IMG/VR virus record: IMGVR_UViG_3300002898_000054 | Coordinates: 1-30,364 of that record | Reading direction: 5' to 3' (one strand) | Source: a virus | DNA: 30,364 bases | Part shown: in pieces, positions 1,636 through 22,041 of the stretch | Layout: each line of letters opens with the position of its first letter | How positions within the stretch are numbered: position 1 is the stretch's first letter | Notes under the pieces: model-generated | Told to the model about the DNA's origin: nothing | What the model saw: only the letters and a program-made list of their open reading frames with translations | Database searches by the model: none | Translations under genes and position numbers: made by a program

Positions 1636-3002
1636 TGTTAGAAAAAACAAAAAAGTATCTTCAACAAAAAGGTTATAACGTAAACGAAAAGGCACAAGAA
1701 AACATCAGAGAGTGCAACGCATGGTACGCAAGCAAGGCATTGCCATTTCACTTTAAGCAAACACTCGGTGGAACAAACTATCAACTAGAGCAGTTAAACT
1801 TTGCAAAGCGTATCTGTTCAGACGAAGCAAACCTTTGCGAGATTATCGACATTAAAAGCGAAAGCGAAAGCAACACAGAATTAATTAACTCGGTGTTAGA
1901 ACTCAACAGATTTGACACCCAGTACAGAAAGCAATTAGAACACATGAGTGCGACCGGAACAGTTGGTGCTTATATTTATTTAAAAGATGCAGAACTTTAT
2001 GACAACGGAGAAGTTAAAAACGGAAGTATTAAAATCAACTACTGCACAGCAGAAAACATTATTCCTTTGCGAGTAGAGAATGACGAAGTAATTGATTGTG
2101 CTTTTGTAGGAACAAATAAGTTGAACGGAAAACAACAAGATATAATCGTTGCATATAAAAAGATAGACAAGAATTACCAAATGACAATCGCACACGTTTT
2201 TGAAGAAAAGGATATGCCGACCGAAGAAGAAACTACACAACTCGGAGAAGTAAAACCTTTTTCAATTATGACAATTGCAGAAGTAAACAACTTTGATAAC
2301 ATGACAGGTTACGGATTGCCAAAGTTGATAAGTGCAATTCCATTTTTGAAAGGGTTAGATTTAATTTACAACGTACTGTATGGAGATTTAGATAAAGCAG
2401 AAAAGATTGTCCTGATAAACGAAATGTTCTCGCAAGTCGATAAGAACGGAGTGCATTATCTGACAGACGAACAAAGAAAGTATTTTTTACTAATGGGCGA
2501 GAAACTACCTGAACAACAAAGCCTTATTCAAGAGCATAACCCAATCATAAGAATTGACGTGTTGAAAGAAGCCTTTGAGTTGTTGTTTAGTTTACTTTCA
2601 CAAAACTATGGGTACGGAAATAAAAAGTATTCATTTAATCAAGGAACAGTAACAACAGCAACACAATATATTCTTGAGAAGTCAGACGAAATGCAATCAT
2701 TAAACAAGCAGAGATTTCAAAGCGAGTTGTATATAAAGGAATTGATAAATGGGATTGTGTGGTTTAGCAACACATACAATTATACAAATCTAAACGTTGG
2801 CGAAGAAATAAGTATAGACTTTGACGATAGTGTTATTACGGATAGACAAACAAAATTAGACAGTATGAGAACAGACGCAATTACATTTGATATTCCAATG
2901 CTTAAAATAATGTATTTAGTTGAGAAGTATAACTTCACAGAGGAAGAAGCAGCAACCTATTTATCCGAAGCGTTTAGGGAAAACGAGGACAACGAAGATT
3001 AA
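1635..3002 (+). CDS. portal protein (SPP1 gp6-like)
   Basis: About 455 aa. ATG 1635 follows the GGAGAG RBS and overlaps the terL stop by 1 nt; the ORF-track start at 1584 lacks an RBS. Position after terL and size are typical of a portal. Confidence 0.85.
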   Translation: MLEKTKKYLQQKGYNVNEKAQENIRECNAWYASKALPFHFKQTLGGTNYQLEQLNFAKRICSDEANLCEIIDIKSESESNTELINSVLELNRFDTQYRKQLEHMSATGTVGAYIYLKDAELYDNGEVKNGSIKINYCTAENIIPLRVENDEVIDCAFVGTNKLNGKQQDIIVAYKKIDKNYQMTIAHVFEEKDMPTEEETTQLGEVKPFSIMTIAEVNNFDNMTGYGLPKLISAIPFLKGLDLIYNVLYGDLDKAEKIVLINEMFSQVDKNGVHYLTDEQRKYFLLMGEKLPEQQSLIQEHNPIIRIDVLKEAFELLFSLLSQNYGYGNKKYSFNQGTVTTATQYILEKSDEMQSLNKQRFQSELYIKELINGIVWFSNTYNYTNLNVGEEISIDFDDSVITDRQTKLDSMRTDAITFDIPMLKIMYLVEKYNFTEEEAATYLSEAFRENEDNED

Positions 3003-3015
3003 GGTGGTGTAAGCA

Positions 3016-4221
3016 ATGTTAACAGAACAACAAATGGAACATATCGCAAAACCATTAACAGAGCATTATCAAAGACTTGAGAATGAAATCTTGTCCAGCA
3101 TATCAAACGGAATATCGAGAACGCTAAAAGTAGCAGATACAATTGTAGAAGAAAAGATAGTTCATTTGCAAGAATTAGGTTTCGAAGATAACAAGGTGCG
3201 TTCAGAAATAAACAAACAACTTTCAACCTCTGCAACATTCAATCGCAAGGCAGGAGAGAACGCAGCACAAGTTAAAAAAGATATAGATCATGCAATAAAA
3301 GTATCGCAATCAAATTATAAAACATTGTTAGACGAGACGGTGCAAAGAGCAGTCGCAGAAACGTGGAAAAATGAAACGGAACTTTATCTTGCGAATGGTT
3401 TGAAAGTTGCAAAGAATATGCCGAAACAATTCCAACAAGCATTGGTAAAAAATATAAGCGGAGACTTGAAGAATTTAACAAAGACATCAGCACTAGGAGT
3501 AAAAACATCGGCAGGAAAGATTGTCGCAGTTCAAAAGGTTTATCAAAAGGAACTGGATTATGCGTTGATAAAATATACAAGTGGAACGGAAACGCTGAAC
3601 GAAGCAATTAAGGGGACAGTTAAAAACCTTTCAAAAAGTGGTGTTCGTTCTACTGGTGGGAGTAAGGTAAGTTATCGAACAACAACAAGACAACTAGACA
3701 GTGCAATCAGGAACTCACTAATTACAACAAGCAATCGAATTGCAGGGAATGTTACACAAAGCAACATTGAAGATTTAGGTGTTGAATATGTGGAAGTATC
3801 AACTTCTATGTCTCCAAGACCAAGCCATGCAGATTGGGAAGGGCAAGTCTACACGCTAGAAGAATTTAAAAGAGTTTGCCATTATGGAGACGAGACAAAC
3901 CCTGATGCAATCTATTCTTATAATTGCCAACACAACCATTATCCGTATTTCAAAGGAACAAAGAGAATGGACAAAGGCTTTCATTATTCGCCTAAAACAA
4001 TTGACGGAAAAGAATATCAAGCGTTTGAATTAACACAAAAGCAACGGAATATGGAACGTGGTATCAGAGATTTAAAGAGAGAGAACAACATACTAAAAAG
4101 CATAGGGGCAGATAATAAAGACGTTTCCTTGCAGATTATGAATAAGACGGACAACTACAAGGCTTTTAGCAAATCAATCGGAATAAGTGCCAAAACGGAC
4201 AGATTAAGGGTATATAGTTGA
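3016..4221 (+). CDS. head morphogenesis / minor capsid protein (Mu F / SPP1 gp7-like)
   Basis: 401 aa with the RPSHADWEGQVY...YNCQHNHYPYF motif characteristic of the Phage_Mu_F domain. It lies immediately after portal. Confidence 0.85.
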   Translation: MLTEQQMEHIAKPLTEHYQRLENEILSSISNGISRTLKVADTIVEEKIVHLQELGFEDNKVRSEINKQLSTSATFNRKAGENAAQVKKDIDHAIKVSQSNYKTLLDETVQRAVAETWKNETELYLANGLKVAKNMPKQFQQALVKNISGDLKNLTKTSALGVKTSAGKIVAVQKVYQKELDYALIKYTSGTETLNEAIKGTVKNLSKSGVRSTGGSKVSYRTTTRQLDSAIRNSLITTSNRIAGNVTQSNIEDLGVEYVEVSTSMSPRPSHADWEGQVYTLEEFKRVCHYGDETNPDAIYSYNCQHNHYPYFKGTKRMDKGFHYSPKTIDGKEYQAFELTQKQRNMERGIRDLKRENNILKSIGADNKDVSLQIMNKTDNYKAFSKSIGISAKTDRLRVYS

Positions 4222-16301: not shown

Positions 16302-16339
16302 GGAATTACCAAACAACCACACAAAAAAGGAGGTAACAA

Positions 16340-16549
16340 ATGTATTTAGAAGATTTGCTAGAAACGATATGTGCTTTGCAGATAGTAGAAATCGAAGATA
16401 CAAACGGAAAAGTTTTATATCATGGAGAAAGAAAGAAATTTGAATATTCAGACATGATCCCTTTTTCTGATGATACAGTAACTGGAGTTGCAACAAACCC
16501 AAGAGACGATGTTTTGTATATCGAAGTTGAAGTAACTCATAACATTTAA
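16340..16549 (+). CDS. hypothetical protein
   Basis: 69 aa behind an excellent RBS (AAAGGAGGT). No recognisable motif. Confidence 0.6.
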   Translation: MYLEDLLETICALQIVEIEDTNGKVLYHGERKKFEYSDMIPFSDDTVTGVATNPRDDVLYIEVEVTHNI

Positions 16550-16563
16550 TAGGAGATTTAATA

Positions 16564-17133
16564 ATGAAATTTAAAGTTTTAATAATATTCGAAGTTCTAA
16601 TTTTTCTAATATCCATCATATTACTAAGTTTAACGATTAAAAGTTCAAAAGTAGAAGTAATTGAAATCGAGCGAATAAGAGCAGATAAATTATTCAACGA
16701 GCAAATTAACGAAGAAGTGGAAGAAGTTGCTCAAACAGAAGAAAATCGGCTCACGATTGCGTATCAAGGAGAAGATTATACACTCACAATCATAAGCAAA
16801 GAAGATTTAGACGTGTTAGAGCGATGCGTGGAAGCAGAAGCAGGCAATCAAGGTCTACTAGGAAAGCAATATGTAACAGATGTTATTCTAAACAGAATGT
16901 ATAGTGACGATTACCCAAATTCAATAACAGGTGTTATTTATCAAGAAAACCAATTCGAAGTTGTGAACTGTGGAACGATCGAAACCATAAATGTTAGCGA
17001 AGAAACAAAAGAAGCAATCCAACTTGAATTAGAGAGTAGACTTGATGAAAGCATTATCCATTTTAAGACAAAAGACTACCACAAGTTTGGAGAGCCAATG
17101 TTCCAACACAAAGACCATTACTTTAGTAAATAA
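16564..17133 (+). CDS. membrane-anchored cell wall hydrolase, SleB/Hydrolase_2 family
   Basis: N-terminal TM (VLIIFEVLIFLISIILLSL) followed by LERCVEAEAGNQGLLGKQYVTDVILNRM...VIYQENQFEVV, characteristic of SleB-type hydrolases. Confidence 0.8.
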   Translation: MKFKVLIIFEVLIFLISIILLSLTIKSSKVEVIEIERIRADKLFNEQINEEVEEVAQTEENRLTIAYQGEDYTLTIISKEDLDVLERCVEAEAGNQGLLGKQYVTDVILNRMYSDDYPNSITGVIYQENQFEVVNCGTIETINVSEETKEAIQLELESRLDESIIHFKTKDYHKFGEPMFQHKDHYFSK

Positions 17134-17136
17134 GTA

Positions 17137-17166
17137 TTGACAATGTATTTCATCGTGGCGTATAAT
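17137..17166 (+). promoter_or_regulatory. sigma-A type promoter
   Basis: TTGACA (17137-17142), an 18-bp spacer, then TATAAT (17161-17166). The ORF-track start at 17137 lies inside this promoter. Confidence 0.6.
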
Positions 17167-17190
17167 GTAAATATAGAAAGGAGTGAGAAA

Positions 17191-17343
17191 GTGAGAACAG
17201 ACAAAAGGAAATATACAATGCAGATTTTAAATGAACGAGTGGAAAATATCGATAAGATCGCAAAAGAAAAAGACAGAAGCAGACAGTATTTAGTCGGAGT
17301 AGCAATTGAAGAATATTGCAAACGAGAAAGTGAGAAGAAATAA
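17191..17343 (+). CDS. ribbon-helix-helix (CopG/Arc-like) DNA-binding protein
   Basis: GTG 17191 lies 7 nt after AAAGGAG. The 50-aa product has a KRKYTMQILNERVENIDKIAKEKDRSRQYLVGVAIEEY strand-helix-helix pattern. Confidence 0.6.
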   Translation: MRTDKRKYTMQILNERVENIDKIAKEKDRSRQYLVGVAIEEYCKRESEKK

Positions 17344-17344
17344 A

Positions 17345-17626
17345 ATGGAAGAAAACTGGAAAGACTTAGGAAACGCAGTAATTATTAAAGCAGTTTATGA
17401 CTACCGGCACGCAAGAAAGGTTTATGAAAAGAACAAGAACAATTATGAAGCTAAAAGCACAATGGAAGAAGTGGAAACCTTTTTATTGTCAGATCATTTT
17501 AAGTTGTTTAGTGGTAGTAGTGGCAAAAGTTTATTAGAAGAAATAAAAAAAGAAGATGCAAATATTAAAAAAGAAGATGCAAATATTAAAATCAGAAGAA
17601 CAGAGCGAGCAGGAAGACAACAGTAA
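17345..17626 (+). CDS. hypothetical helical protein
   Basis: 93 aa. ATG 17345 follows the RHH stop immediately. It contains an internal KEDANIK duplication. Confidence 0.55.
   Translation: MEENWKDLGNAVIIKAVYDYRHARKVYEKNKNNYEAKSTMEEVETFLLSDHFKLFSGSSGKSLLEEIKKEDANIKKEDANIKIRRTERAGRQQ
17549..17590 (+). repeat. perfect 21-bp tandem duplication aaagaagatgcaaatattaaa x2
   Basis: Read directly from the sequence. It is in-frame (KEDANIK x2). Confidence 0.95.
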
Positions 17627-17643
17627 TCTAAAAGGAGGTATTT

Positions 17644-18309
17644 ATGTTTAGAATATTAAAAGCAGAAGAAATTGAGTGCAGAGTTGCAACGATAAACGAA
17701 AAAGGGTGTATGTTGCTTTTATACAAAGACGCAAGGGTTGACGCAAACATTCTTGATGAGACAGTTGGTGCTATGAATTGGCAAAGACATCACACTAGAG
17801 ACAATGCAAACTGTATCGTTTCGATATGGGATAAAGAAAAATCACAGTGGATTGAAAAAGAAGATACCGGAAAAGAAAGTTTTACAGAAAAAGAAAAAGG
17901 TCTTGCTTCAGATAGTTTCAAACGTGCTTGTTTTGTATGGGGTATCGGCAGAGAATTATATACTGCACCATTTGTCTGGATAAACGCAAGTGACTTTATT
18001 ATGAAAGAAAACAAAGGTAAAAAAATAACGTATGACGATTTTCAAGTAAAAAATATTGAAGTAACAAATGGAGTAATAACTGGACTATCTATAATAAACG
18101 CAAGCAATAAAAACAAAGAAGTGTTTTTAATGGGAAAACAAACCACACAAGCACCATTAGTTCAAAAACTAACGAAAAAGCAAGTTGATGTTATGTTAAA
18201 AATGTTTGAGGAACAGAAGCGTGATCCATTGAAATTATTAAGTGGAAAGAAGATTGAAGAACTTTCAATCGAGCAGTACGGAATTGTTATGGAAAAATTA
18301 AAAAGGTAA
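17644..18309 (+). CDS. single-strand annealing protein, Rad52/Sak family
   Basis: 221 aa with the motif GLASDSFKRACFVWGIGRELY and N-terminal ECRV...LLLYKDAR typical of Rad52-like phage recombinases. RBS is AAAGGAGGT. Confidence 0.8.
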   Translation: MFRILKAEEIECRVATINEKGCMLLLYKDARVDANILDETVGAMNWQRHHTRDNANCIVSIWDKEKSQWIEKEDTGKESFTEKEKGLASDSFKRACFVWGIGRELYTAPFVWINASDFIMKENKGKKITYDDFQVKNIEVTNGVITGLSIINASNKNKEVFLMGKQTTQAPLVQKLTKKQVDVMLKMFEEQKRDPLKLLSGKKIEELSIEQYGIVMEKLKR

Positions 18310-18328
18310 CTTAAAACGGAGGAAAAAA

Positions 18329-19228
18329 ATGAACGAATTAAAAGTGGTACAAACACTAGGAACAATCGAGTGTAATTTTGAAGAAACAAGGATTAAGGTG
18401 CAAAGTATTGCAGATGGTTACATTGACGCAGTTTTTCACGAGGACACAGTTGCAGATGCCAAAAAGCACGTTGCAACACTAAGGAAGTTTAAAAAGGCAT
18501 TAAACGACAAGAAAATTGAAGTCGGCAAAGCATATAGTTTGCCACTTGCAGAATTTGAAAGTAAGGTAAAGGAACTACAAGCATTGATTGACAAGCCAAT
18601 TGAAGAAATAGGACTGCAAATCGAAGTGTTTGAAACTGCAAGAAAAGAAAAAAAGAAAAAAGCAATTGAAGAAATATATAACTCGCTGCTTGACGAGATA
18701 AAAGAAGTTGTTACTCTTGGCAGCATTTACTTAGACAAATGGGAAAACAAAGGCTGCCTTTTAGACGATATTAAAAAAGATATTGAAGAAGTCGCAGACA
18801 AAGTTCTCGCAGAAATCACACTAATAAAATCTATGAAGTCAGACGTTGAAAAGAAAGCCCTTGATATCTACAAAATAAACAGAAATCTAGCGAGTGCAAT
18901 TGAATATATCAACGACGATATTAACAGAAAAAGGGAAATTATAGAGCAAGAAAAAGAACGGACAAGACAAGCAGAAGCCGAACAAATAAGAAAAGAAGAA
19001 CGTTTGAAAATTCAACAAGAGCAACAAATCGAAAAAGAAGTAGCAGATGCAAAAGAAGAAACAACAAACGATTTAATAGAAAGTTTAACTCCTGTATTTG
19101 ATACCGAAGAAGAAATGGAAGAATTAGTTTATAAAATTAGGCTGAACAAAGACGGAAAAAATAAACTTGAAATGTTTATGGATAGTGTAGGGATTGATTA
19201 TCAAGAGGAGTGCGAAGCGTGGCTGTAA
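18329..19228 (+). CDS. DUF1351-family protein (recombinase-associated)
   Basis: 299 aa with the N-terminal pattern IECNFEETRIKV...DAKKHVATLRKFKKALNDKKIEVGK...FESKVKEL, located next to a Sak-type annealase. Confidence 0.6.
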   Translation: MNELKVVQTLGTIECNFEETRIKVQSIADGYIDAVFHEDTVADAKKHVATLRKFKKALNDKKIEVGKAYSLPLAEFESKVKELQALIDKPIEEIGLQIEVFETARKEKKKKAIEEIYNSLLDEIKEVVTLGSIYLDKWENKGCLLDDIKKDIEEVADKVLAEITLIKSMKSDVEKKALDIYKINRNLASAIEYINDDINRKREIIEQEKERTRQAEAEQIRKEERLKIQQEQQIEKEVADAKEETTNDLIESLTPVFDTEEEMEELVYKIRLNKDGKNKLEMFMDSVGIDYQEECEAWL

Positions 19229-19743
19229 AATCGAAAGGTTTTCTAACATCAATTACAAAACTTTTTAATGGTAAATATCAGGTGGTTTTTGAAATGGAAA
19301 AGCCACTTGATCATAAGTCAGACGAGTTGTTGAATATTGAAGTTAAGAAATACAGAAAAGGTCGATCACTAAATGCAAACTCTTATTTCCATTTACTTTG
19401 TGATAAAATAGCTAAAGAAAGAAATATAACAAGCACAGCATCAAAAAATATCTTGTTAGGTTTTTACGGAACAATTGACGAAGAAGTAAATGCAATCTTG
19501 ATGCTGGATAACATTGAGTATTTAGAAATGGATAACTTGCATTTAAAACCAACGTCACGAACAGAAGCCTTTGAAAGTGGAAAATTATACCGAGTTTACC
19601 ATGTTATAAAACCCACTCATTTATACGATACAAAAGAAATGGCAAATTTGATTGACGGAACGATTAACGATTGCAAAGAGTTGGGGATTGATACATTAAC
19701 ACCAACCGAAATTGAGCGAATGAAAGGAGCGTGGCTTGGCTAA
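19219..19743 (+). CDS. NinB/Orf-like or HNHc_6-type N-terminal-domain recombination-associated protein
   Basis: About 174 aa with the RKGRSLNANSYFHLLCDKIA motif (the RSLxxN motif shared by NinB/Orf and putative HNHc nuclease families). The start is uncertain: GTG 19219 is 8 nt after GAGGAG, and GTG 19210 abuts the RBS. Confidence 0.5.
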   Translation: MAVKSKGFLTSITKLFNGKYQVVFEMEKPLDHKSDELLNIEVKKYRKGRSLNANSYFHLLCDKIAKERNITSTASKNILLGFYGTIDEEVNAILMLDNIEYLEMDNLHLKPTSRTEAFESGKLYRVYHVIKPTHLYDTKEMANLIDGTINDCKELGIDTLTPTEIERMKGAWLG

Positions 19744-19819
19744 AAAATTATGGTCTATATTTACAAAAGATATGGATACGTGTATCTATACAGGTTCTAT
19801 CCAAGTGGAACTTACATAA
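19736..19819 (+). pseudogene. 27-codon 5' remnant of a Cys/His nuclease-like gene (paralogous to 20435..20731)
   Basis: AAAGGAG, 6 nt, then TTG 19736 gives the same RBS geometry as the intact copy. It encodes MAKKLWSIFTKDMDTCIYTGSIQVELT* and aligns to ...DDMRYCLVCGSPYPEVHH, ending just before the His-His motif. Confidence 0.5.
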
Positions 19820-19840
19820 CAAACATATTGATGGTATAAT
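19811..19840 (+). promoter_or_regulatory. possible promoter (extended -10) for the homing endonuclease gene
   Basis: CTTACA, an 18-bp spacer, then TGgTATAAT (TATAAT at 19835-19840). Confidence 0.35.
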
Positions 19841-19845
19841 GATCT

Positions 19846-19931
19846 CATAGGTGTGCGAGATCTATACAAACTTTAATTTGCTGATTACCATCATGGGACC
19901 AATGTATGCACTCGCACTGTATACACCTATG
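19846..19931 (+). other. long-range stem structure in the leader upstream of the HNH gene
   Basis: CATAGGTGT-GCGAG (19846-19859) is complementary to CTCGC (19911-19915) and ACACCTATG (19923-19931). It is followed by GTGGTTTTTATAATTT. Confidence 0.45.
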
Positions 19932-19959
19932 GTGGTTTTTATAATTTAAAGGAGAAATA

Positions 19960-20475
19960 ATGAAAGAAAAATGGAAGAAGATTGACGGATATGATGGAGG
20001 CTATGAAATTTCTAATCTTGGCAGAGTAAAAAGTATGTGGAGATTCAGGAGTTTGCACGGTAAAATTGTTAGGGTTAGCAAAGAACACATGATGACGCTA
20101 TCAGACAATGGAAATGGGTATTTAATTGTTTCATTGAAAAATAACAATGCAAGAAAAAATTATTATGTTCACAGGCTTGTGGCAACTTATTTTCTGAAAG
20201 AAATAGATGGTAAAAATGTTGTTAATCATATTGACTATAACAAAAAGAATAATAATGTATTAAATTTAGAATGGTGTACTCAATTAGAAAACACTAGACA
20301 TTCTATAAAAAATATGAAGAAAAAGGGAACAAGAACTGAAAATATACCATATATAAGAGATCGTGGATCCAGATTTGAGATTTGCATCAAACAAAAATAT
20401 TATGGTAGGTTTAAAACTTTAGAGGAGGCTATCGTTGAAAAAAGAAAAATACTTAAAGAACTCAATTATTATTGA
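19960..20475 (+). CDS. HNH homing endonuclease (NUMOD4 + HNH_3 type)
   Basis: N-terminal WKKIDGYDGGYEISNLGRVKS (NUMOD4) followed by NGYLIVSLKNNNARKNYYVHRLVATYF...VNHIDYNKKNNNVLNLEWCTQLEN (HNH_3). RBS is AAAGGAG. Confidence 0.85.
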   Translation: MKEKWKKIDGYDGGYEISNLGRVKSMWRFRSLHGKIVRVSKEHMMTLSDNGNGYLIVSLKNNNARKNYYVHRLVATYFLKEIDGKNVVNHIDYNKKNNNVLNLEWCTQLENTRHSIKNMKKKGTRTENIPYIRDRGSRFEICIKQKYYGRFKTLEEAIVEKRKILKELNYY

Positions 20476-20731
20476 TGACATGAGATATTGTCTAGTGTGT
20501 GGAAGCCCATATCCAGAGGTCCACCACGTGTTGTTCGGTCCTAACAGAAAGAATAGCGATAAATATGGGTTAATCATTCCATTATGTGCAGAACATCACA
20601 GAGGAAACAATGGACCACATATGAACAGAAAAATAGATTTAAAGTATAAAGAAATGGCACAACGTAAATTTGAAGAAAAACATGGAACAAGAAAAGAATT
20701 TATTGAGTTATTTGGAATGGGGTATTTATGA
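20435..20731 (+). CDS. Cys/His (HNH- or NinG/Rap-like) nuclease-like protein
   Basis: GAGGAGG, 6 nt, then TTG 20435 (alternative ATG 20480). Motifs are CLVCG...EVHHV...PLCAEHH...GPH. Its 5' end overlaps the HEG 3' end by 41 nt. Confidence 0.6.
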   Translation: MKKEKYLKNSIIIDDMRYCLVCGSPYPEVHHVLFGPNRKNSDKYGLIIPLCAEHHRGNNGPHMNRKIDLKYKEMAQRKFEEKHGTRKEFIELFGMGYL

Positions 20732-21204
20732 ATGAGGGTAAAAGATTTGAAAACAATGTTAAAAAGTCGGTTGACGCAAATACTTATTTCTTGCGATTGA
20801 ACGATAGTTCCCCTGCAGGATACGGAGACCAAAAAACAATGCGTTTTTCTTTACAATCTCCTTATGACATTATTCTTTTTAAAAACAATAAAATGTATTC
20901 GGTGGAACTGAAAAGCACAAAAGCAAAATCAATTTCGTTTGACGGTAGTTCGCCAATGATAAAAAAGCACCAACTAAAAGAACTTGAACGTGCGTTGTGC
21001 TATGGAATAAACGCAGGCTTTCTGCTAAACTTCAGAACATCAGAAACAACGTACTATGTAAAACTAGAAGATTTAAAAACATTTATAAGTAGCACAGACA
21101 AGAAATCAATCAATGTAAAGGAAGTCAAAGAAATAGGAATAGAAATACCAACTCAAAAACTAAAGGTAAATTACAGATATGATCTAAGTGTATTTGTAAA
21201 ATAG
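20728..21204 (+). CDS. recU: Holliday junction resolvase RecU-like (PD-(D/E)xK)
   Basis: 158 aa with the pattern GKRFENNV...PYDIILFKNNKMYSVELKST...KKHQLKEL...GINAGFLLNF, matching the RecU D...E.K core and HQ motif. Confidence 0.7.
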   Translation: MNEGKRFENNVKKSVDANTYFLRLNDSSPAGYGDQKTMRFSLQSPYDIILFKNNKMYSVELKSTKAKSISFDGSSPMIKKHQLKELERALCYGINAGFLLNFRTSETTYYVKLEDLKTFISSTDKKSINVKEVKEIGIEIPTQKLKVNYRYDLSVFVK

Positions 21205-21214
21205 GAGGAATAAT

Positions 21215-21616
21215 ATGAACAAAGTAATTCTTATCGGTAGATTAACGAAAGACCCAGTAATTTATGGAAATGTTGCAAAGTATACGCTTGCAGTAGATCG
21301 AAAGTTTAAACAAGAGGGGCAGCCGACAGCAGACTTTTTGCAATGTGTAGTATTTGGCAAACAGAAAGATTTTGTTGAACAATATTTGAACAAAGGAATG
21401 AAGATTGCTGTAACTGGAAGAATACAGACTGGAAGTTATGATAAAGACGGTCAAAAAGTTTATACAACAGATATTATTGTCGAAGATCATGAATTTTGTG
21501 AAAGTAAGCAACAAGGAAACTCTGCATATAAAAATGATGATCCGTTTAACAAAGATAGCAAAGACGATTTTGTTAATATTCCTGATGGAGTAGATGACGA
21601 AGTCCCATTTCTATAA
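21215..21616 (+). CDS. ssb: single-stranded DNA-binding protein
   Basis: MNKVILIGRLTKDPV OB-fold start and an acidic C-terminal tip (DDEVPFL). Confidence 0.9.
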   Translation: MNKVILIGRLTKDPVIYGNVAKYTLAVDRKFKQEGQPTADFLQCVVFGKQKDFVEQYLNKGMKIAVTGRIQTGSYDKDGQKVYTTDIIVEDHEFCESKQQGNSAYKNDDPFNKDSKDDFVNIPDGVDDEVPFL

Positions 21617-21705
21617 TCGACGGTTTAAGCAACAACAACAATGTAGGCAAGGAAATATAGGACAATGTAATGTAAGTTGTCCTAAATGGCTAAAAGGAGG
21701 CAAGT

Positions 21706-22041
21706 ATGAGCAATAAAGTAATAGATATAATAAAATTTATACCATATGGACACGAAAACGGAATAACAGGTAGAGAATTACAAAATATTACACACTTAAA
21801 TAATCGCAGAGTTCGAGAGTTTATCGAAACCGAACGAATGGATCATGTTATTTTAAACATGCAAGATGGAAAAGGATATTTCAGACCGACCGAAGCCGAG
21901 ACAGATTTAACGAAACGTTGGATATTGCAAGAAATGTCTAGGGCAAGAAAAATAATGAAACGCACAATGTTTACAGTTAATATGACACAGAAAGAATTTG
22001 GAAAGATTATTGGATTGACACAATCAAAAAAGCTTTACTGA
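21706..22041 (+). CDS. putative winged-helix DNA-binding protein
   Basis: 111 aa behind an AAAGGAGG RBS. It has a GITGRELQNITHLNNRRVREFIE wHTH-like segment, and its C-terminal MTQKEFGKIIGLTQS looks like the first half of an XRE HTH. Confidence 0.5.
   Translation: MSNKVIDIIKFIPYGHENGITGRELQNITHLNNRRVREFIETERMDHVILNMQDGKGYFRPTEAETDLTKRWILQEMSRARKIMKRTMFTVNMTQKEFGKIIGLTQSKKLY

Follow-up and report, generated by a model that had tools for sequence, protein, structure and literature searches.

How does a phage gene come to survive as a stump of 27 codons beside an intact, distantly related version of itself, with an endonuclease gene lodged between the two? The question is raised by a viral sequence of 30,364 nt from IMG/VR (IMGVR_UViG_3300002898_000054; this whole stretch of DNA is called the window below), in which a short open reading frame (ORF), a free-standing homing-endonuclease gene and a 98-codon gene for a small HNH protein follow each other between a NinB-like and a RecU-like gene (Table 1). 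The answer that we favour, and consider likely, is a gene replacement associated with the homing endonuclease (intronless homing) in the slot between NinB and RecU. The original prediction, made from the letters of the window, had described the stump, the endonuclease ORF, the start signals of the intact gene and a 41-nt overlap of the latter two, and these statements about the sequence proved correct throughout; the promoter-like element and the structured leader that it placed between stump and endonuclease were recovered as well. It had further expected that relatives lacking the endonuclease would possess a single uninterrupted gene from the equivalent of the TTG at 19736.

Two relatives of exactly this kind were found. 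L015 is a 6.6-kb contig from a food metagenome that encodes the protein P0021, and L145 is a 5.9-kb contig binned with a metagenome-assembled genome of Sedimentibacter, which is weak evidence for the host. In blastn comparisons, L015 1865-5293 matched window 16323-19774 with 98.99% identity and L015 5495-6649 matched window 20669-21823 with 99.48% identity, while both flanks of L145 were 99.0-99.7% identical to the window. Directly behind the NinB-like gene, both contigs carry one uninterrupted gene of 100 codons, of a type called ERHH below, which starts with the predicted TTG (L015 5255-5557); RecU comes next, and the endonuclease is absent. The last approximately 20 codons of the intact gene in the window equal those of the L015 gene at the protein level. 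The segment in which the window departs from these relatives is bounded on the left by a junction at 19774/19775 and on the right by one between 20669 and 20684, beyond which the DNA matches L015 except for one single-nucleotide polymorphism (SNP) at 20671. The filled site recurs in two further Logan assemblies, L001 and L002, which are identical. It recurs also in L016 (99.1% identity, five substitutions inside the cassette), where the stump is kept with one amino-acid change.

Two SNPs close to the left junction (19646 and 19731) were considered as a gradient of co-conversion and discarded, as window-specific SNPs occur throughout the window. Outside the cassette, 267 nt with an 84-codon ORF are present in L015 (1598-1864) and L145 (869-1135) and missing from the window (16323-16326) and from L016, so that a second presence/absence difference goes along with that of the cassette. 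At window 17546-17588, an A-rich stretch just 5' of a 221-codon gene (17644-18309), a deletion of 21-22 nt is found in L015 and L145 and an insertion of 23 nt in L016; L016 also carries a 9-nt insertion at window 21968.

Table 1. Features of the locus in the window, contexts of related endonuclease genes, and insertions in endonuclease-linked small HNH genes (slashes delimit the insert).
Feature	Sequence	Position	Strand	Description
NinB/Orf-family recombination mediator gene	window	19210..19743	+	phrog_72, 4e-12; left homology arm; stop overlaps start of stump ORF
27-codon ORF, 5' stump of ERHH-type small HNH gene (phrog_7566)	window	19736..19819	+	codons 1-25 homologous, up to 19811
Segment differing from endonuclease-less relatives	window	19775..20671	+	~895 nt in place of ~200 nt (L015 5294-5494)
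Promoter-like site	window	19811..19840	+	CTTACA, 18 nt, TGgTATAAT; 10/12 matches plus upstream TG; best of region
Long hairpin, putative endonuclease 5' leader	window	19871..19951	+	region -40 kcal/mol, z = -3.5, 0/200 shuffles as stable
Free-standing homing-endonuclease gene, 171 codons	window	19960..20475	+	NUMOD4 9e-14, HNH_3 1e-10 (Pfam), C-terminal helix; phrog_59/959
Native 3' tail of endonuclease gene	window	20421..20475	+	carries ribosome-binding site, TTG start and first 13 codons of downstream gene in another frame
Intact 98-codon small HNH gene, zinc-finger CxxC…CxxHH subfamily of phrog_7566	window	20435..20731	+	CxxC-family profile 156 bits; phrog_7566 1e-25
RecU-like Holliday-junction resolvase gene	window	20728..21204	+	PF03838 at 3e-9; right homology arm; 99.5% identical in L015
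Endonuclease relative P0024	L148/149			directly 3' of NinB-like gene
Endonuclease relative P0025	L150-152			upstream of phrog_7566-type gene
Endonuclease relative P0028	L153			directly 3' of NinB-like gene
Endonuclease relative, 47%	L138			upstream of phrog_7566-type gene
Four full-length IMG/VR endonuclease matches	L154-L157			upstream of phrog_7566-type gene
Further IMG/VR endonuclease match	L214			upstream of phrog_7566-type gene
Insert in small HNH gene	L150	3587-3604		CATCAT/TGACAT/ATC; in frame
Insert in small HNH gene	L155	2549-2566		CATCAT/TAGCCC/GTC; in frame
Insert in small HNH gene	L157	3090-3108		CACCAT/TAGCCAC/ATC; +7, frameshift

In its present state the 27-codon ORF is a dead 5' fragment of an ERHH-type gene. 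It is preceded by an AAAGGAG ribosome-binding site (19723-19729) and a 6-nt spacer, encodes MAKKLWSIFTKDMDTCIYTGSIQVELT and ends with a TAA at 19817-19819. Scored with the profile of the ERHH family among all 1132 stop-to-stop ORFs of the window, it obtained 41.9 bits (E = 6e-12) over profile positions 1-25, and the runner-up ORF had an E-value of 0.46. Every family invariant of this part is present (K3, L5, S7, T10, C16, G20 and E25). The Arg-His-His and LHPNG motifs are absent and the domain is incomplete, so that the ORF is a fragment rather than a member gene. No family member shows homology past 19811; this base opens both the Arg codon of V-E-R-H-H and the -35-like hexamer CTTACA. A continuation of the homology past 19811 in the +1 frame, where 'LHNKHIDG' resembles 'RHH*HIYPG' of L150 (the asterisk marks the stop), was rejected, as 87% of shuffles scored as well in local alignments to 13 family segments.

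The allele to which the stump belonged is not that of L015 throughout. Its codons 1-13 are identical to the start of the L015 gene (39/39 nt), and codons 14-25 differ from the L015 allele and match P0146 on L136 in 32 of 37 nt. Since codons 14-25 are not those of L015, the truncation must be older than the transfer into an L015-like background. The proposal that the resident allele was truncated by the event therefore stands in so far as the stump is a true 5' fragment of such a gene, but not in its timing, the truncation having come earlier.

It could be argued that the ORF was kept because it is useful, for instance as a small peptide that binds a NinB-like partner. Its strong ribosome-binding site, its start codon and its full set of invariant N-terminal residues would fit this idea, as would its retention in L016 and the natural fusions of NinB with small HNH domains described below, which suggest that the N-terminal region works beside NinB. 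However, the genomes that retain it form a single lineage of near-identical sequences, so that retention is uninformative on selection; the catalytic motif is missing, and no other example was seen among approximately 100 loci of the family. We therefore regard a useful peptide as improbable. A survey of 118 IMG/VR loci bearing an ERHH-type N-terminus gave no second case of a stump with an endonuclease; it gave frameshifted genes at L056 and L091, and an endonuclease relative downstream at L131 only. In L056 (7019-7866, minus strand) the ERHH-type gene is frameshifted in or beside the Val codon just 5' of the Arg-His-His codons, near the breakpoint of the window, and an endonuclease gene is absent from this 13.6-kb locus. 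In L131 (2244-3909, minus strand) the ERHH-type gene is followed immediately by the endonuclease relative (N-terminal 124 positions), an order opposite to that of the window.

The intact gene belongs to another subfamily than the stump. It is preceded by GAGGAGG (20422-20428) and a 6-nt spacer, shows the pattern CxxC…HH…CxxHH…H with all invariants of its subfamily kept, is 90% identical to the corresponding gene of contig L003, and its residues 10-28 are homologous to the N-terminal residues of family members. Matches to Pfam families remained below the respective thresholds (score/threshold in bits: RecA_dep_nuc 19.2/26.9, DUF968 22.7/27.8, HNHc_6 14.5/26.6). The ERHH type, with the consensus MAKKLWSIFTxDMDxCxxTGxxxVERHHVFG…PLxPxLHPNG…FEExHGTRExFIxxFGxSYL, was entered through the 100-residue P0021, whose first 13 residues are those of the stump and whose last 20 are the end of the intact gene. 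Its members make up 30 clusters in the protein collection and 221 representatives in the cluster-representative library (E<=0.001), and they occur on approximately 100 IMG/VR contigs. No Pfam match and no relative of solved structure was obtained for the ERHH type; the CxxC type gave weak matches only, to the HNH domain of IscB. Three of the four CxxC-type zinc ligands are missing from the ERHH type, which keeps the His-His pair and a later His.

In a comparison of the two family profiles by hhalign the probability was 99.9% (E = 8e-34), and both match phrog_7566. Judged by these profiles, the ERHH and CxxC types are sister subfamilies of phrog_7566, a family without an assigned function, and the ERHH type is a widespread, previously unannotated, zinc-less subfamily of putative nucleases. 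The claim that stump and intact copy are similar thus holds by way of the sister subfamilies, but the direct similarity is not significant (CxxC profile against the stump: 7.7 bits, E = 0.26). The strong divergence that had been noted at the DNA level was borne out, the two gene types being approximately 51% identical across the replaced part. L017 has a CxxC-type gene that starts differently, with MAKTKSIIIEDM, in a context without an endonuclease gene.

The endonuclease gene possesses its own translation signals (AAAGGAG, 5 nt, ATG) and is located in neither an intron nor an intein. It keeps all invariant columns of 18 homologues and on this evidence is intact; we infer that it is also active. 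It is the only member of its family in the window. The family comprises 1690 proteins at E<=1e-5, of which the nearest outside this phage lineage is 51% identical. A metagenome scan for the endonuclease in other contexts returned relatives of at most 47% identity only, and the sole close copy is that of L016 (99%), in the same arrangement.

The 3' end of the endonuclease gene is shared with the start of the intact gene, and the question of which of the two genes it originally belonged to was answered by shuffling. The GAGGAGG ribosome-binding site coincides with the Glu-Glu-Ala codons of a conserved LEEA motif of the endonuclease, and the last 17 residues of the enzyme (LEEAIVEKRKILKELNYY) can be aligned to the C-terminal ends of homologues found in unrelated contexts. 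Against the family profile the native protein scored 226.5 bits, proteins with the last 14 residues shuffled had a mean of 219.2 and the truncated protein 217.9, so that the tail is worth 8.6 bits; 1 of 300 shuffles reached the native score. With the first nine residues of the 98-codon gene, 67 of 300 shuffles scored as well. As the tail is native to the endonuclease family and the N-terminus of the gene does no better than shuffles, the downstream gene takes its start signals and first 13 codons from native endonuclease sequence. The same overlap between endonuclease and small HNH start is present in L148, L153, L150, L138, L154 and L156.

A trace of this tail also remains in L003, which carries no endonuclease and is 68% identical to the window in NinB and 90% in the CxxC-type protein. 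Its slot (L003 3516-3772 region) holds an unrelated Cys-rich ORF of 70 codons without a Pfam or PHROG match, and L003 3716-3772 retains a 55-nt endonuclease tail (approximately the last 14 codons) upstream of and inside the start of the CxxC-type gene, where the endonuclease frame reads IEKRKILKELNYYR followed by a stop. The retained tail implies that the endonuclease was formerly present in L003 and was later lost. From the sequences compared, the site appears to show both gain and loss of the endonuclease.

Between the stop of the stump and the endonuclease ORF lie 140 nt of non-coding DNA. The promoter-like site begins exactly where the homology of the stump to its gene family stops; in the region, 7 such sites were found and 10.4 were expected from shuffles, that is, there is no enrichment. 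The pairing at the base of the hairpin extends into the ribosome-binding site of the endonuclease (AAAGGAG, 19948-19954), covering its first bases. The sole substitution in the hairpin between the two cassette lineages (window 19944 A>G, L016 3796) replaces a predicted U-A pair by U-G, with the stem preserved. For the leader including the hairpin (19812-19959), no similarity at the DNA or the translated level was found outside cassette-bearing contigs among the sequences compared. A predicted hairpin over the ribosome-binding site together with a predicted private promoter would resemble the control of T4 endonucleases.

The structured RNA 5' of the endonuclease ORF, and the coincidence of the stop of the stump with the position of the His-His motif in the downstream gene, could also be expected if the endonuclease ORF lay in a self-splicing intron, with exon 1 (19736 to approximately 19811) spliced to the region behind the His-His codons at approximately 20520. 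However, no Rfam match was obtained at E<=10 or at gathering scores and no group I or group II signal was detected, the 3' half of an intron core would have to fit into only approximately 45 nt, and what lies downstream is no 3' exon but a complete gene that brings its own ribosome-binding site and start. Moreover, the comparison with L015 shows that the 3' part of the gene of the stump is simply absent from the window. An intron is thus extremely improbable, and the endonuclease is free-standing, as first proposed.

The position of the endonuclease gene next to a small HNH gene is not particular to the window. For each of its nine closest inspectable relatives (38-51% identity), which come from unrelated phages, the gene that follows immediately is of the phrog_7566 type, in most cases with an overlap at the start of that gene (Table 1). 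Among the 80 best IMG/VR relatives of the endonuclease, the association with a small HNH gene was seen in 13. An insertion site that is conserved across diverged hosts is as expected of a homing endonuclease. In L156, two ORFs of the endonuclease family (2435-3031 and 3288-3896) flank and overlap one CxxC-type small HNH gene (2950-3324) on both sides. More distant relatives, with approximately 41-46% identity over the N-terminal ~115-135 residues, are located in eight loci (L181, L185-L187, L189, L191, L192 and L211) directly upstream of a larger HNH protein (approximately 220-240 residues) that has this CxxC…HH…CxxHH core as well. The association between endonuclease and HNH gene may, by this similarity, be older than the small-gene family.

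Three of the endonuclease-linked small HNH genes carry inserts of 6-7 nt that begin with a stop codon and lie directly 3' of the His-His codons (L150, L155 and L157). In all three the frame 3' of the insert is open as far as the native stop. No comparable insert was found in approximately 95 complete ERHH-type IMG/VR genes, none of which has a gene of the homing-endonuclease family directly upstream. The breakpoint of the stump, just 5' of CGN-CAY-CAY, and the inserts, just 3' of the His-His codons, bracket the nine bases encoding Arg-His-His, which are the most conserved DNA of the gene. It is plausible, given this bracketing, that these bases are the recognition or cleavage site. The inserts may be scars of self-immunity, by analogy with the gene 60 insert of T4. 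For a short ribosomal hop (CAU-stop-CAU/CAC), which would give back the protein, a suitably spaced His codon is present behind the stop of L150 and of L157; L155 offers none there. A reassignment of stop codons was considered for the in-frame stops; a crude test of ORF length gave no discrimination, and gene calls with the standard code tile L150 well.

From these findings a course of events can be reconstructed. The mobile unit would be the endonuclease gene with its short leader and the zinc-finger small HNH gene that is started from the endonuclease 3' tail. During a co-infection the endonuclease would have nicked or cut the ERHH-type gene at or beside the Arg-His-His codons. RecU and the conserved 3' portion of the gene would have provided the homology for repair of the right end, and, with a donor that had no homologue upstream of the endonuclease, the resected left end would have been joined illegitimately 5' of the leader, leaving codons 1-25. 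This earlier truncation would have happened in a phage with a P0146-like allele. Subsequently, a block consisting of the 3' half of the stump, the leader, the endonuclease and three quarters of the CxxC-type gene would have moved into an L015-like background by homologous recombination, a step that is seen in the comparison itself, with one crossover at 19774/19775, within the first 13 codons, and the other at 20669-20684, within the last ~20. Once present, the stump would give left-hand homology, and the cassette could spread by ordinary two-sided conversion. The small-nuclease function would now be supplied by the gene of the zinc-finger type. The replaced tract, from 19775 to approximately 20671 and bounded by homology, is compatible with preferential inheritance with co-conversion.

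This reconstruction builds on the gene structures, homologies, presence/absence polymorphism, junctions and locus specificity of the clade that were observed, and several points weigh against it. The ERHH-type gene would be cut at the His-His codons and the linked gene would resist cutting, two suppositions that find indirect support in the locus specificity of the endonuclease clade and in the inserts behind the His-His codons of three linked alleles. The illegitimate left join is a reconstruction, and no donor context for the cassette turned up among the sequences compared. The private promoter is predicted from a consensus match only. Within the cassette the genomes diverge about as much as beyond it (0.3-1%), so that this comparison does not date the entry of the cassette. 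Gain is favoured here over loss, and L015 could descend from a cassette-bearing phage that regained the ERHH-type segment; such a reversal of the last step would still need the earlier truncation. Finally, mosaic recombination at conserved gene ends could yield both outer junctions without any cut.

The last point can be extended to the whole locus, which would then be a product of ordinary phage mosaicism, formed by illegitimate and homologous recombination without cleavage, with the endonuclease as a passenger ('moron') or inactive. The outer junctions do lie in the most conserved 5' and 3' gene ends, where homologous exchange is expected, and the slot is generally variable, as the unrelated Cys-rich ORF in L003 illustrates. 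Mosaicism alone would, however, leave to chance that the inner breakpoint falls exactly at the catalytic Arg-His-His codons, that endonuclease-linked alleles carry lesions at the same codons, that the endonuclease clade is tied to the small HNH gene in many unrelated phages, and that the endonuclease is intact. We therefore consider ordinary mosaicism unlikely, though it is the rival to be taken most seriously, and retain replacement by intronless homing as the probable history.

A bolder version of the homing reading can be formulated for the clade as a whole. The endonuclease and the zinc-finger small HNH gene might form an obligate two-gene selfish module that targets the Arg-His-His codons and drives the replacement of ERHH-type genes across unrelated phages, while carriers that are still cleavable would escape through stop-containing inserts tolerated by hopping or read-through, a miniature analogue of MobA and gene 60. 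We hold this tentatively and think it rather doubtful; the stop-containing inserts in related loci are nevertheless the most promising lead for something truly new.

The window is the genome sequence of a temperate-type siphophage of the low-GC Firmicutes host group. It has 34% G+C, a siphophage-like organisation and all genes on one strand; no tRNA genes and no Rfam matches were found in it, and a search for near-identical GenBank phages gave no close relative. An SSB gene lies 3' of the RecU-like gene. A small HNH gene directly 3' of a NinB-like gene is also present in Lactobacillus delbrueckii phages, in MT835516, and in L015 and L145, and both small-HNH types have been found 3' of NinB-like genes in other phages. 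In P0172 a NinB-like N-terminal part (~180 residues) is naturally fused to an ERHH-type C-terminal domain, which was confirmed; for P0177 the same fusion is inferred from protein length and match position. These fusions suggest a joint action of the two neighbouring genes in the window.

A role in shaping phage mosaicism is ascribed to free-standing homing endonucleases, mostly on evidence from T4-like and ICP1 phages. The present locus adds a set of uncultured Firmicutes phages that provide an empty site, a filled site, a stump marking the probable cut site and an endonuclease-loss relative that keeps the tail. It suggests that the exchange of one nuclease subfamily for another can be brought about by a selfish element, it predicts the Arg-His-His codons of a small HNH gene as the target, and it provides a downstream gene whose ribosome-binding site and start codon are made from endonuclease coding sequence. 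Intronless homing, marker exclusion and cycles of gain and loss are already known; new are the host group, the family of the target gene, the replacement by a sister subfamily, the start signals that derive from the tail of the endonuclease, and a preserved stump indicating the cut site.

A review covers intronless homing and co-conversion as well as HNH endonucleases that nick and control by hairpins (PMC2988022). The closest parallels are intronless homing by SegF, SegG and MobE of T4 and the marker exclusion between T4 and T2, which share with the window a free-standing gene beside conserved genes, presence/absence polymorphism, replacement of the flanks and a hairpin near the ribosome-binding site (PMC2988022). 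In contrast to these, the window belongs to a Firmicutes siphophage, its putative homing endonuclease has the NUMOD4/HNH_3 architecture, and the presumably co-converted gene comes from another subfamily than the gene it replaced. Moreover, the window keeps a stump of the old gene, whereas clean two-sided co-conversion leaves none. MobA, MobE and I-HmuI are HNH homing enzymes that nick one strand (PMC2988022), and in T4 a short insert in gene 60 near the MobA site protects the carrier from its own endonuclease (PMC2988022; bioRxiv 10.1101/2022.08.31.505936). The 6-7 nt inserts of L150, L155 and L157 recall this insert. As in the window, an HNH endonuclease is tied to a functionally critical gene region both in MobA with gene 60 and in MobE, which splits nrdA in phage Aeh1; the interrupted gene of the window, by contrast, is not reassembled from its halves and is replaced by a complete second copy, and a bypass insert is absent from the window.

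The Bacillus phage enzymes I-HmuI, I-HmuII and I-BasI likewise belong to phages of Firmicutes and join an HNH domain to NUMOD-type DNA-binding modules. They nick a single strand and bring about the exclusion of flanking markers (PMC2988022); they are encoded in group I introns, whereas the endonuclease of the window is free-standing. The intact gene shares the CxxC…HH…CxxHH pattern with P1 Ref (PF16786), DUF968 and HNHc_6 through weak, sub-threshold matches, and its best fit is phrog_7566. In ICP1, the 'HEG islands' (HEG, homing-endonuclease gene) described by Barth et al. (2023) likewise place an endonuclease gene exactly at the edge of a recombined block between otherwise near-identical phages (PMC10448857). 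Compared with those islands, which exceed 10 kb, the block in the window is a single-gene cassette of approximately 0.9 kb and its endonuclease is of another family.

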